This document shows positions 2,919 through 7,412 of a DNA stretch of 64,000 nt, one piece after another. Position 1 is the first letter of the stretch. The number at the start of each line of letters is the position of its first letter. The notes beneath the pieces were generated by a model. The model did not search any database. It worked only from the letters and a program-made list of their open reading frames with translations, and had not been told where the DNA came from. Origin of the DNA: a virus; IMG/VR virus record IMGVR_UViG_3300017971_000265, positions 1-64,000 of that record; one strand, 5' to 3'. The translations under genes were made by a program, and so were the position numbers.

Positions 2919-3252
2919 GGGAGAGTGGGCCTTTTTTAAAAAACTGGCATATAGCAGAGAGCAGCAGTTGGCTTTTTTTGATCGCTTGCAGGAGATGAAG
3001 GTTCCAAGGAAGAGACGGATCGCATATGCAGCAGCCATTTCTCTTGTTACCGTAATAGAGGAAGCGGCTGGTTCTTTAGACGTCTTCTTCGATGGGGGGT
3101 TGTGTATTTTTTATGGTGGTCAGTGTGAGAAGTGCATTGGGAGATCTCGTATGGGGGGGTGTTCGTTTTGTGGGCATAGCAAGGATAGTGTGAGGAATGT
3201 TTGCGAGGTATATAGGAAAGCTTTCAACACGGTAAGAAGAGGTAAGGAATGA
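2908..3252 (+). CDS. Cys-rich hypothetical protein; C-terminus TVRRGKE encoded by element E2
   Basis: CEKC and CSFC motifs; overlaps the upstream stop region. Confidence 0.6.
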   Translation: MRLKGEWAFFKKLAYSREQQLAFFDRLQEMKVPRKRRIAYAAAISLVTVIEEAAGSLDVFFDGGLCIFYGGQCEKCIGRSRMGGCSFCGHSKDSVRNVCEVYRKAFNTVRRGKE

Positions 3253-3358
3253 GACTAGTCTTAGCCGAGACTAGCGGGAGACATCGATGTTGCTTGGGGA
3301 CGTCGAGCCCGGAAGTCCCGCATTGGGAAAAGACTTGGCGAGATGGAGATTTCCAAGG
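3229..3358 (+). repeat. Dispersed element copy E2 leader (structured, contains anti-repeat)
   Basis: Near-identical to 6027-6156, 6774-6888 and 7208-7337. Confidence 0.95.
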
Positions 3359-3444
3359 GTCTTTTCCACATGCGTGGAAGGTTGCGATCATCCGGCGGGT
3401 GGGTGCACCCTGGAACGTCTTCTCCACACATGCGTGGAGGGTTG
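3359..3444 (+). CRISPR. CRISPR-like mini-array: 2 repeats, one 32-bp spacer
   Basis: GTCTTTTCCACATGCGTGGAAGGTTG (3359-3384), spacer 3385-3416, GTCTTCTCCACACATGCGTGGAGGGTTG (3417-3444). Confidence 0.6.
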
Positions 3445-3454
3445 GAGGTTAAAA

Positions 3455-3727
3455 ATGCCGAAGGGTAAGAGCAAGGATAGGGTTATGGCTGCGGCAACGA
3501 GGACAGTAAATGTGGTGGAGTGCCAGTCATGTAAGCGGATGCACCCAGTTGATAGTGAGGATTTTGTCGTCATATATGGAAACATTAGTGTGGGCCTAGA
3601 GGTGCGTGAGGTTGTTGGAGGCAATATAGACGATAATGGGAAGGTATCGGGATCAGCGATTTATTGCCGGAGACGGGAGTGTTTGGAACGTGTCTTCTCT
3701 CGAATTCTGGCTCCGGCCAAGGGTTGA
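3455..3727 (+). CDS. Hypothetical protein with CxxC motif
   Basis: GGAGG RBS at the end of the array, ATG at 3455. Confidence 0.65.
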   Translation: MPKGKSKDRVMAAATRTVNVVECQSCKRMHPVDSEDFVVIYGNISVGLEVREVVGGNIDDNGKVSGSAIYCRRRECLERVFSRILAPAKG

Positions 3728-3961
3728 CAGATGGCCTGGGATTGTTTTAGATGAATTTAGAGAACTGCTCCCGGTCTCATGTGAGCGGTAGACCACTGCC
3801 TAAGAATGCCCCCCCACATTTGAAGGCACTATCGCTCCTTGGGGCCGGTCGAGCGGTTCTCTTTTTTTTAGTGTGGAGGGTTGTTTGGTTATCGGTTGGT
3901 ACGTTTTATTCACGGTCGTGTGGATGGATCTAGCTATGACTAATTGAGACTGGAGGAAGAG

Positions 3962-4462
3962 ATGAAATACGTGGAAGCGCCGAATTCGATAGAGGGCATG
4001 GCAAGGCCCGCTATTTTTTTGGCCGGTGGAATTTCTAATTGCGAGGATTGGCAGAGGGAAGTTTCGAGTAGAGTCTGTGCAGAGGTGACCAGGGGGACAT
4101 TGCTCAATCCGAGGCGGGCAGATTTTCCCATAGATGATCCTGGTGCGGCGGAGGGACAGATCAACTGGGAACAACAGGCTCTATGGGCATCAGACGTCGT
4201 TTCGTTCTGGTTTGCTAAGGGTACATCGGTGCAACCTATTGTGATGTTTGAGCTTGGTTGTCACTTGGGGCGTTATTGTATTGGGGGAGGACCGAAAAGA
4301 ATTCTTGTCGGGATAGACCCTGAGTATGCGAGGAAGCAGGATGTGATCTTGCAGATCCAGGCGCATGCGCGTTCTCTAAATGGCCCCTGGATAATTGTTC
4401 CGCATTTTTCATTGAAAGAGCATATTGAAAAAATTATCAGCACAATGGAGACTATACGATAA
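3962..4462 (+). CDS. Nucleoside 2-deoxyribosyltransferase-like protein
   Basis: IFLAGGI..C.DWQ, NPRR, QI.WE...L..SD, FWF and PI.MFELG motifs; GGAGG RBS. Confidence 0.8.
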   Translation: MKYVEAPNSIEGMARPAIFLAGGISNCEDWQREVSSRVCAEVTRGTLLNPRRADFPIDDPGAAEGQINWEQQALWASDVVSFWFAKGTSVQPIVMFELGCHLGRYCIGGGPKRILVGIDPEYARKQDVILQIQAHARSLNGPWIIVPHFSLKEHIEKIISTMETIR

Positions 4463-4468
4463 GGTTGA

Positions 4469-4558
4469 GAATGAAACTAGTCTTAGCCGAGACTAGCGGG
4501 AGATATCGATGTTGCCTGAGAACATCGAGCCCGGAAGTCCCGCATTGGGAAAAGACTT
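4469..4558 (+). repeat. Dispersed element copy E3 (leader only, truncated within the anti-repeat)
   Basis: gaatgaaactagtcttagccgagactagcggg...gtcccgcattgggaaaagactt. Confidence 0.9.
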
Positions 4559-4559
4559 T

Positions 4560-6156: not shown

Positions 6157-6243
6157 GTTTTCTCCATATGCGTGGAGGGTTGGGTTCTGCTAACGCGCTA
6201 GGAACTTTTCCAGGAGTCTTCTCCACATATGCGTGGAGGGTCT
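6157..6243 (+). CRISPR. CRISPR-like mini-array: 2 repeats, one 33-bp spacer
   Basis: Repeats 6157-6182 and 6216-6243; spacer 6183-6215. Confidence 0.6.
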
Positions 6244-6365
6244 GTTTACCTGGTATACGATGAGGCGTTTTTTTTAGTGGATAGGTGTTATACTTTTTAT
6301 CTTGACATTACGCTATAGCATATGATAGGCCGTGATGACGACACAACAGGACGGAGACAAAACAG

Positions 6366-6770
6366 ATGAAGGCCAAGATTTTTGAGGGGACGCATACAAG
6401 GGTCGAAGATCAGATTAATAAGTGGTTGGGCGAGAATAATTTGACAGAGATAAGTCTGTCAATTGCTGCGAGTGGGGGTATGTCTATGGTGGCACTTGCT
6501 TTGTATCGAGAGGCGAGTTCGGGGGATCGCACGGAGAAGGGCAAGGCTGGCCTGGGAGCGCCGAGATGCACCTGCGGTGCCCCAATGATTAAGAGACATC
6601 GACATTCGGATGGAGAGCCATTCTGGGGCTGCTCACAGTATCCTGCGTGTCGAAACCTCTTACCATATGATAGGGCAGAAGCGCCAGGGGAGCAGGGTGA
6701 AGTTTTAGACCAAAGAAGGGTAGAGGATGGAATTGCCGATCTGGATCGGGGCGATGATATCCCATTTTAA
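6366..6770 (+). CDS. Protein with topoisomerase-type C4 zinc finger and SSB-like DDIPF tail
   Basis: PRCTCGAPM..R....GEPFWGCSQYPACR; ends GDDIPF. Confidence 0.8.
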   Translation: MKAKIFEGTHTRVEDQINKWLGENNLTEISLSIAASGGMSMVALALYREASSGDRTEKGKAGLGAPRCTCGAPMIKRHRHSDGEPFWGCSQYPACRNLLPYDRAEAPGEQGEVLDQRRVEDGIADLDRGDDIPF

Positions 6771-6773
6771 AAA

Positions 6774-6888
6774 AGGAATGAGACTAGTCTTAGCCGAGAC
6801 TAGCGGGAGACATCGGCGTTGCTTGGGGACGTCGAGCCCGGAAGTCCCGCATTGGGAAAAGACTTGGCAGAGATGGAGATTTCCAAGT
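6774..6888 (+). repeat. Dispersed element copy E5 leader
   Basis: Near-identical to the E2 leader. Confidence 0.95.
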
Positions 6889-7039
6889 GTCTTCTCCACA
6901 TATGCGTGGAGGGTTGGTAGGGGATCGGGTATCGGCCATTTCTCAGGGTCGTCTTTTCTACGGGTGCGTGGAGGGTTGGAAGGGCACGTTGGCGTGGATG
7001 GTGCACACAAAGTCTTCTCTACGGGTGCGTGGAGGGTTG
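6889..7039 (+). CRISPR. CRISPR-like mini-array: 3 repeats, spacers of 34 and 33 bp
   Basis: 28-bp repeats at 6889-6916, 6951-6978 and 7012-7039; periods 62 and 61. Confidence 0.7.
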
Positions 7040-7042
7040 GGC

Positions 7043-7231
7043 ATGACGTCTGAGAAGGTAGTTTTGACAATTGAGGAAGTGGCTAAACAGCTCCATACGA
7101 GTCGTACCACCATATTCAAACTCATCAAGGAGGGGTTGCCGACGATCAGGGTGGGTAAGCGTCGGTTAGTTCCGATTAAAAGCTTTGGGGAGTGGTTGGA
7201 GAAAAACACGGTAAGAAGAGGTAAGGAATGA
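7043..7231 (+). CDS. Excisionase-like helix-turn-helix DNA-binding protein
   Basis: VLTIEEVAKQLHTSRTTIFKLIKEGLPTIRVGKRRLVP; RBS supplied by the last repeat. Confidence 0.85.
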   Translation: MTSEKVVLTIEEVAKQLHTSRTTIFKLIKEGLPTIRVGKRRLVPIKSFGEWLEKNTVRRGKE

Positions 7232-7337
7232 GACTAGTCTTAGCCGAGACTAGCGGGAGACATCGGCGTTGCTTGGGGACGTCGAGCCCGGAAGTCCCGC
7301 ATCGAGGAAAGACTTGGCGAGATGGAAATTTCCAGGG
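7208..7337 (+). repeat. Dispersed element copy E6 leader
   Basis: Near-identical to the E2 leader. Confidence 0.95.
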
Positions 7338-7412
7338 GTCTTCTCTATATGCGTGGAGGGTTGTTGAGTGAAATGCTTACCTACGTCTTCTCCACGGGTG
7401 CGTGGAGGGTTA
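7338..7412 (+). CRISPR. CRISPR-like mini-array: 2 repeats, short 21-bp spacer
   Basis: Repeats 7338-7363 and 7385-7412 (CTCCACG-GGTG-CGTGGAG hairpin). Confidence 0.5.

Follow-up and report, generated by a model that had tools for sequence, protein, structure and literature searches.

Several compact type V systems derived from TnpB have been published, some of them carried by phages (TranC, Cas12p, Cas12r, Cas-lambda, and Cas-phi). Cas12 nucleases are believed to descend from TnpB through about 50 separate origins, and the associated CRISPR arrays to have come from duplicated pieces of omegaRNA (PMC10691335). Natural intermediates between TnpB and Cas12 are rare. Here we describe a set of dispersed repeat arrays in a contractile-tailed phage represented by the 77.9-kb IMG/VR virus record IMGVR_UViG_3300017971_000265, the first 64 kb of which form the stretch analyzed (the window; positions below refer to it unless a contig is named). 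Our analysis makes it probable that four mini-arrays in the window, together with the leader they share, are guide-RNA loci of a phage-encoded, TnpB-derived (type V/TranC-like) RNA-guided nuclease, the putative gene for which lies on a metagenome contig (L092) adjoining the window.

The window contains nine repeats of 26-28 nucleotides (nt) in four mini-arrays, all on the + strand. A strict 28-nt pattern matches six of these, against 0.00 expected from shuffled sequences; the other three are leader-proximal, 26 nt long, and have a loop shorter by 2 nt. The first mini-array (3359-3444) comprises repeats at 3359-3384 (26 nt) and 3417-3444 (28 nt) around a 32-nt spacer (3385-3416), and an ATG at 3455 comes 11 nt past it. 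The second (6157-6243) has repeats at 6157-6182 (26 nt) and 6216-6243 (28 nt, ending in GGGTCT) with a 33-nt spacer between them (6183-6215); the third (6889-7039) has three repeats (6889-6916, 6951-6978, and 7012-7039) and spacers of 34 nt (6917-6950) and 33 nt (6979-7011); and the fourth (7338-7412) has repeats at 7338-7363 (26 nt) and 7385-7412 (28 nt) separated by a 21-nt spacer (7364-7384). The spacers are mutually unrelated, and each is present as a single copy in the 77.9-kb record. An initial annotation made from the letters of the window had reported these nine repeats, their positions, and the unrelated spacers in the same terms.

The 3′ half of the repeat is constant (GCGTGGAGGGTTG(G), also written GCGUGGAGGGUUGG). 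In the repeat stem the 3′ partner GTGGAG does not change, and the 5′ arm varies among the copies (CTCCAC, TTCTAC, CTCTAT, and CTCCAT); the U-G wobbles that result show that it is as RNA of the + strand that the hairpin is conserved. Behind the stem comes a tail of 5-6 nt, GGTTG(G). Since the base following GGGTTG is usually G (G in nine cases, C in two, and T in one), the repeat may be 29 nt long with spacers of 32-33 nt.

Each mini-array is headed by a copy of a conserved leader of about 110-130 nt (3229-3358, 6027-6156, 6758-6888, and 7208-7337). The leader occurs eight times in the window, always on the + strand, and is absent from the other 14 kb of the record; the four further copies start near 2476, 4451, 11322, and 34486. 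The initial annotation had counted the same eight copies but had credited them with different spacers, and that part does not hold: spacers are present in only four of the eight units, two others end in one decayed repeat, and two have no repeat. From ten leader copies, RNAalifold predicts four leader helices and 28 pairs, including the outer three of the repeat hairpin; 98% of the cells pair, as against 38-50% when the partners are slid by 1-3 columns. Three pairs change on both sides, and several states are U-G pairs, which on the opposite strand would be mismatches. The leader is a folded, multi-helix RNA of the + strand. In four of the eight units its 3′ part can pair in cis with the sequence of the junction and the first repeat's 5′ part, at -14 to -18.5 kcal/mol (shuffle control, -6.5 +/- 2.2 kcal/mol). 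No Rfam family reaches the gathering score in the window, and the matches around the L092 arrays are at chance level.

Contig L092 came from a scan of metagenome contigs in which two repeat 3′ halves were required, 36-54 nt apart. Of the 72 loci that the scan returned, nearly all proved to be unrelated arrays, tandem repeats, or repeats within coding sequence, and L086 and most of the remaining matches were rejected on these grounds, among them CRISPR arrays with unrelated 36-nt repeats (L108, L128, and L130). L092 carries the leader of the window twice, in identical form, together with identical repeats. Its last 123 bases (L092:11387-11509) match window positions 1-123 with 100% identity, and its G+C content and GC skew are like those of the window. 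In the sequencing runs that hold the window, a repeat-flanked 33-nt stretch with a depth of 12.8 (about 12 for the phage) is the last spacer of the L092 array. This depth and the end overlap identify L092 as the left neighbor of the window; at a minimum, it belongs to the same phage population.

An open reading frame (ORF) for a TnpB/Cas12-like protein of 621 amino acids (aa) lies at L092:6770-8635, about 2.8-4.6 kb upstream of the window start, so the absence of cas genes recorded in the initial annotation is an artifact of where the window begins. Directly downstream of the gene comes one leader (L092:8655-8769), and directly behind that leader an array of six repeats and five spacers (L092:8770-9105), co-oriented with the gene; the second leader of L092 is followed by an array of three repeats and two spacers. 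An array located downstream of the effector gene and in the same direction is the arrangement of almost all conserved Cas12-CRISPR associations (PMC10691335).

The 621-aa protein matches the Pfam families Cas12f1-like_TNB (1.4e-23) and OrfB_IS605, and sequence matches in the PDB include ISDra2 TnpB (about 1e-23) and LaTranC. The core of its AlphaFold model has a predicted local distance difference test score (pLDDT) above 90. With this model the best Foldseek matches are ISFba1 and ISDra2 TnpB (template modeling score [TM] 0.76-0.82 over the target); LaTranC, Cas12p, and Cas12f come next, and Cas-lambda is also among the matches. These matches fit a single effector of the TnpB/Cas12 fold, a fold built of WED, REC, split RuvC, and zinc-finger/TNB parts. 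The RuvC triad is intact in sequence: in an alignment of 36 sequences, D330, E492, and D594 fall in columns that are invariant or nearly so. The 119 detectable homologs are ordinary TnpBs of 340-460 aa, and the nearest of them (375-420 aa) are 57-59% identical over the core.

Outside the core, the N-terminal 145 aa of the protein consist of a zinc ribbon and two long helices, and no relatives of the N-terminal 150 aa were found. A 23-aa zinc-ribbon motif is common to this extension (residues 43-65, L092:6896-6964) and to an insert of about 80 aa (residues 425-447, L092:8042-8110); the two copies are 57% identical, a likeness that points to an internal duplication. The extra domains amount to domain accretion such as accompanies the change from TnpB to Cas12. 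A search of IMG/VR gave no relatives of the effector.

A second pairing of this type is found on L120 (Ga0315277_10066332), a 4.1-kb phage-like contig with a phage metallopeptidase gene. The locus at L120:50-984 comprises a TnpB-like C-terminal half, 30% identical to the 621-aa protein and with an apparent frameshift near its start, and an array of four repeats (spacers of 32, 32, and 38 nt). The array follows about 55 nt later, arranged as on L092, and the last 14 nt of its 29-nt repeat (GCGTGGAGGGTTGG) are the same as in the window repeats. Both of the spacer-bearing arrays with this repeat 3′ half that the metagenome scan recovered, on L092 and L120, therefore adjoin TnpB-like genes. The closest large relative of the phage (G001, 142 kb; major capsid protein about 76% identical) encodes an ordinary 389-aa TnpB (L136:2862-4031) with no array or leader nearby, so TnpB genes recur in this phage group, with arrays gained by only one lineage. 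The leader was not found in the relatives located via the major capsid protein (71-78% aa identity), including the 142-kb record. IMG/VR, scanned with patterns of the repeat, of the leader hairpin, and of two repeats, gave one chance match (L007) or nothing, although the window's own record may lie outside these scans. Among 185,579 species genomes there is no array with this repeat; the 40 matches are all single and at chance level.

Assignment of the arrays to a nuclease of the phage itself is favored because the effector gene and an array are adjacent and co-oriented, and the protein has an intact RuvC triad and a predicted TnpB-like fold; because the leader is a conserved multi-helix RNA of the + strand and the repeat hairpin is maintained through U-G wobbles; because the leader can pair in cis with the first repeat in four units; because the spacers are unique and tightly set in length; because L120 provides a second TnpB-like gene with its array; and because no sampled species genome has an array with this repeat. 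In the mechanism we propose, the units would be transcribed inside the + strand operons of the phage, and the leader, about 125 nt long, would act as an omegaRNA- or tracrRNA-like scaffold (tracrRNA, trans-activating CRISPR RNA). Cis pairing that takes in the junction and the first repeat's 5′ part might make the leader, repeat 1, and spacer 1 a natural single guide. Each guide would have the unchanging 3′ half of a repeat beside it as its handle, as in type V. Guides for one nuclease would then come from at least six arrays with 12 spacers. The DNA cut may be matching sequence in rival phages or other mobile elements, targets that are proposed by analogy with Cas12r, CauTranC9, and viral mini-arrays.

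Several observations weigh against this assignment. The effector is absent from the 77.9-kb record itself, and its linkage to the window consists of the 123-nt end overlap and the shared elements; the overlap could be a repeat. Following up spacer matches, as the initial annotation had suggested, gave no protospacer for any of the 12 spacers, and hence no target or protospacer-adjacent motif (PAM), in the phage's own genome, the collected loci, INPHARED phages, PLSDB plasmids, or IMG/VR (scanned twice for exact 22-nt matches). The unit at 34486 shows weak cis pairing, the leader's own repeat is not its best pairing partner, and trans anti-repeat duplexes (-13.3 and -13.8 kcal/mol) equal the shuffle means and are not significant. 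The repeats are palindromic, and in Cas12 systems palindromic repeats usually accompany guides that work without a tracrRNA (PMC10097598). The effector is a singleton, with no relatives of its N-terminal 145 aa or of the insert of about 80 aa, so that co-evolution of protein and array cannot be traced. Lastly, four of the eight window units have no spacer and several repeats overlap ribosome-binding sites, features that a purely regulatory role fits as well.

The positions of the units relative to genes bear on this last point. Every unit sits exactly at a gene junction and in the sense direction. The conserved sequence starts within the 3′ end of the upstream ORF, and four upstream ORFs share the C-terminus TVRRGKE*; in the copy at 3229-3358 this is the common segment of about 22 nt that encodes the C-terminus and the stop codon. 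Downstream, the repeat has in its 3′ arm a GGAGG that is sequestered in the hairpin; it precedes, by 5-7 nt, ATG 7043 (an HTH_17 gene; 7 nt, in the last repeat of its mini-array), ATG 11441, and ATG 34645. The copy at 2476-2564 (+ strand), with its first hairpin truncated at the 5′ end, has no repeat and runs into ATG 2565 of an unknown ORF, and the one at 4451-4559 (+ strand), likewise without a repeat, continues into ATG 4560, the start codon of a gene for an N6/N4 DNA methyltransferase. The unit at 11322-11440 (+ strand), a leader with one decayed repeat, has lost helices 2 and 3 by internal deletion; the GGAG of the decayed repeat serves as the ribosome-binding site for ATG 11441.

The last unit (34486-34644, + strand), also a leader with one decayed repeat, stands directly 5′ of ATG 34645. 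It is missing at the matching gene junction in four related phages (L010, L011, L013, and L014) and is therefore an insertion. In the relatives the upstream stop codon abuts the gene's own GGAGG; in the window (34380-34700) the upstream gene has a C-terminal extension of about 20 aa that ends in a cassette-borne stop, and the relatives stop earlier. Given this earlier stop and the gene's own GGAGG in the relatives, the cassette has remodeled both neighboring gene ends. The copies without spacers resemble cassettes that have decayed or been co-opted, and they now give stop codons to the genes upstream and ribosome-binding sites to those downstream.

Traces of the repeat are also found away from the leaders. 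A solitary 3′ half-repeat (AGTGTGGAGGGTTG) lies on the + strand at 3868-3883, directly past a terminator-like hairpin and T-run (hairpin, T-run, and half-repeat together span 3841-3883), and at 6262-6290 a similar terminator-like hairpin and T-run is followed by a weaker motif resembling the repeat 3′ half (AGTGGATAGGTGTT). Such half-repeat motifs past terminator-like hairpins may be remnants of terminal repeats.

A more speculative proposal, which we regard as rather unlikely, is that the cassettes do with RNA guides what free-standing homing endonucleases do in T-even phages, the arrays being born in place from the omegaRNA 3′ end. From scaffold copies located at gene junctions, the one TnpB-derived nuclease would be led to relatives that infect the same cell; its guide would be an acquired spacer or, where a unit has none, the ribosome-binding site beside it together with the first part of the following gene. 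A rival phage or a cassette-free allele would be attacked, and recombinational repair would copy the cassette and the adjacent anti-restriction genes across; the arrays might be filled by a type I-E adaptation machine of the host.

The main rival to a guide function is a purely regulatory role of the dispersed copies, comparable to the PeSL cassettes of T4-type phages. The units would be multiplied 5′-untranslated-region or junction modules that set early-gene transcription, RNA processing, and translation and that promote module shuffling, and working guides, if any, would come only from the arrays beside the nuclease gene. The exact junction positions, the shared C-terminus, the sequestered GGAGG, and the four units without a spacer all suit such a role, as do the variable anti-restriction-type genes that neighbor the cassettes; PeSL intergenic cassettes are reported to shuffle genes in T4-type phages (PMC2839356, PMC4122927). 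Such modules leave unexplained, however, the unique 32-34-nt inserts that occur 11 times between identical hairpins and the leader unit that heads a six-repeat array directly behind a TnpB-like gene. Signals of the sigma-70 type, the kind that the scan covered, are at chance in positions 1-12000 (promoters, 10 versus 10.8; terminators, 12 versus 10.3). Junction position and stem-loops are shared with the PeSL cassettes, and an excess of sigma-70-type promoter matches is not seen. A regulatory role in place of a guide role is unlikely on this evidence, and the two are not mutually exclusive.

Less probable still is the dependence on the host that the initial annotation had put first, in which mini-arrays of type I-E borrow the host Cascade; its second suggestion, an unknown effector, is borne out by the TnpB/Cas12-like gene on L092. 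Mini-arrays of the first kind would mimic a host type I-E system, and host Cas6e and Cascade would process and load the RNAs, which would attack rivals or jam immunity. The geometry agrees in repeat length (28-29 nt, starting with GTnTT), in the 6-bp GC-rich stem, and in spacer size (32-33 nt). The variable base after GGGTTG recalls E. coli type I-E, in which the last repeat base is PAM-derived, and host Cas1-Cas2 of the I-E type might fill the arrays. The 5′ handle in type I-E is 8 nt (7 nt in 28-nt repeats), but the tail here is 5-6 nt, a shortfall already remarked in the initial annotation; moreover, the 5′ arm of the stem drifts and the 3′ half is fixed, as for a type V handle. Viral mini-arrays that rely on host Cas proteins are established, but the known ones have repeats identical to those of the host (PMC11656645), and no array with this repeat is present in the 185,579 species genomes, although the host may be unsampled. 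The only two spacer-bearing arrays with the repeat 3′ half in the metagenome scan adjoin TnpB-like genes, and with a phage effector adjacent, borrowing is unnecessary.

There is similarly little to recommend a non-autonomous mobile element, in which the leader and first repeat would be the right (omegaRNA-coding) end of a TnpB transposon, spread as a miniature element, and the spacers and extra repeats would be by-products of replication slippage or recombination. Such an origin would suit an effector whose nearest relatives are ordinary TnpBs, a scaffold present in many copies beside a single nuclease gene, and the insertion of the unit at 34486 relative to four related phages. Arrays are themselves thought to come from duplicated omegaRNA segments (PMC10691335), and units that lack a spacer have the start of the flanking gene behind the scaffold, an order like that of a transposon. 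Against this, no TnpA was found among the scanned ORFs of L092 and window positions 1-12000 (the scan covered part of the ORFs), and no left end or target duplication was seen. All 10 copies have the same direction and occur at gene junctions only, and inserts of 32-34 nt that are unrelated to one another are not a product of slippage. The 621-aa protein has gained extra domains, like domesticated Cas12s, and the guides are array spacers, not the flanking DNA that an element of the IS200/IS605 family with TnpA or defined ends would use. An early idea, that the units are purely 5′-untranslated-region cassettes sequestering ribosome-binding sites, was demoted on the discovery of L092.

The phage genome in which the cassettes are set encodes a portal, a prohead protease, a major head protein, and sheath and baseplate proteins; CheckV estimates the record to be about 46% complete. 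All genes are on the + strand, which is G-rich. The cassettes are interleaved with an island of DNA-modification and anti-restriction-type genes (3944-10386) that includes a nucleoside 2-deoxyribosyltransferase-like gene, an N6/N4 methyltransferase with a helix-turn-helix insert, a Mom-like gene, and a second methyltransferase of 516 aa. In the tail-gene region (59450-59800) a 117-nt unit is present in three tandem copies (100%, 98%, and 82% identical).

Two public DNA runs contain the window (“sediment 2018” and “seawater 2021”), and over positions 1-12000 their contig sets and break points are identical; no RNA run is among the public runs listed as containing it. The two DNA runs probably represent a single data set that was deposited twice, so they do not count as separate occurrences, and because the contigs of both are identical no strain variation can be read from them. 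Every contig break over positions 1-12000 falls inside a leader copy. Both assemblies also break in a stretch of about 0.9 kb that has no long + strand ORF (L092:10600-11509 and window 1-340). Motifs like the T-arm of a tRNA occur near L092:10850 (GGTTCGATTCC) and at window positions 315-335 (GGTTCGAATCC); ARAGORN found no tRNA or transfer-messenger RNA in this ORF-poor stretch.

If the arrays are guide loci of the 621-aa protein, their organization lets the passage from an omegaRNA to a CRISPR array be observed directly: each array keeps its long scaffold attached, the repeat nearest the leader is distinct from the internal ones, and the scaffold occupies at least 10 sites for one nuclease gene. 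It also suggests a multi-locus guided-nuclease system in large T4-like phages, perhaps used in phage-phage competition. The cassettes supply stop codons and ribosome-binding sites as well, and guide production may be coupled with early-gene expression. A compact 621-aa nuclease with a short 28-29-nt repeat is, in addition, a possible tool. Scattered cassettes of this kind were not found described in the searchable literature, in a search of limited reach.

Among published systems, TranC and the compact phage Cas12 nucleases stand closest. The TranC nucleases (LaTranC and the phage-borne CauTranC9; 10.64898/2026.03.27.714800, PMC13565253) share these features: a RuvC nuclease of TnpB size or slightly larger, a short co-oriented array downstream, no adaptation genes, a scaffold RNA related to the right-end RNA of the transposon, and, in some cases, a phage genome. 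LaTranC is also among the best sequence and fold matches of the 621-aa protein. Repeats of 32-38 nt are reported for the TranC clades, however, in contrast to 28-29 nt here, and the scaffold here is fused to each array in at least 10 copies in place of a single tracrRNA gene, with most copies kilobases away from the nuclease gene, at gene junctions. The effector here is also set apart by an N-terminal zinc-ribbon/helical extension that is unique to it and by a zinc-ribbon insert that is duplicated.

In both fold and sequence, the protein core is matched best by the IS200/IS605 elements, in which TnpB works with an omegaRNA (ISDra2 and ISFba1), and the ISDra2 omegaRNA, a four-stem scaffold of about 116 nt that is contiguous with the guide, has been called a “natural single guide” (PMC10097598), as is proposed here for the leader, repeat 1, and spacer 1. 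In contrast to those elements, no TnpA among the scanned ORFs and no transposon ends were found here, the guides are split by repeats into a true array, the protein is 621 aa and not about 400 aa, and the scaffold starts past the stop codon of the gene and does not overlap it. Viral mini-CRISPR arrays and single repeat units (SPV1/SPV2 and RNA anti-CRISPRs; PMC11656645) are likewise virus-borne arrays of one or two spacers that probably act in inter-virus conflict, but they carry the host repeat and need host effectors, whereas here no host match was found and the putative effector belongs to the phage.

Cas12p, the “hacker” nuclease (10.1101/2025.01.20.633832), Cas12r of Thermus phages (10.64898/2026.04.20.719267), Cas-lambda, and Cas-phi are compact phage-borne type V nucleases that also have no adaptation genes and are thought to be active in mobile-element conflicts. 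As described, each has one locus and one array, and scattered scaffold-array cassettes are reported for none; Cas12p has, in addition, a 37-nt repeat and a separate 185-nt tracrRNA. The PeSL cassettes resemble the present units as conserved junction motifs in variable regions of T4-like myoviruses, bordering genes that come and go; as described, they are promoter and stem-loop motifs without spacers or an RNA-guided nuclease (PMC2839356, PMC4122927), whereas the units here have no sigma-70-type promoter signal above chance. Set beside all of these, the phage described here differs in its short 28-29-nt repeat, in the fusion of a scaffold to every array, in the spread of the scaffold to at least 10 junction sites for one nuclease gene, and in the unique domains added to the protein.

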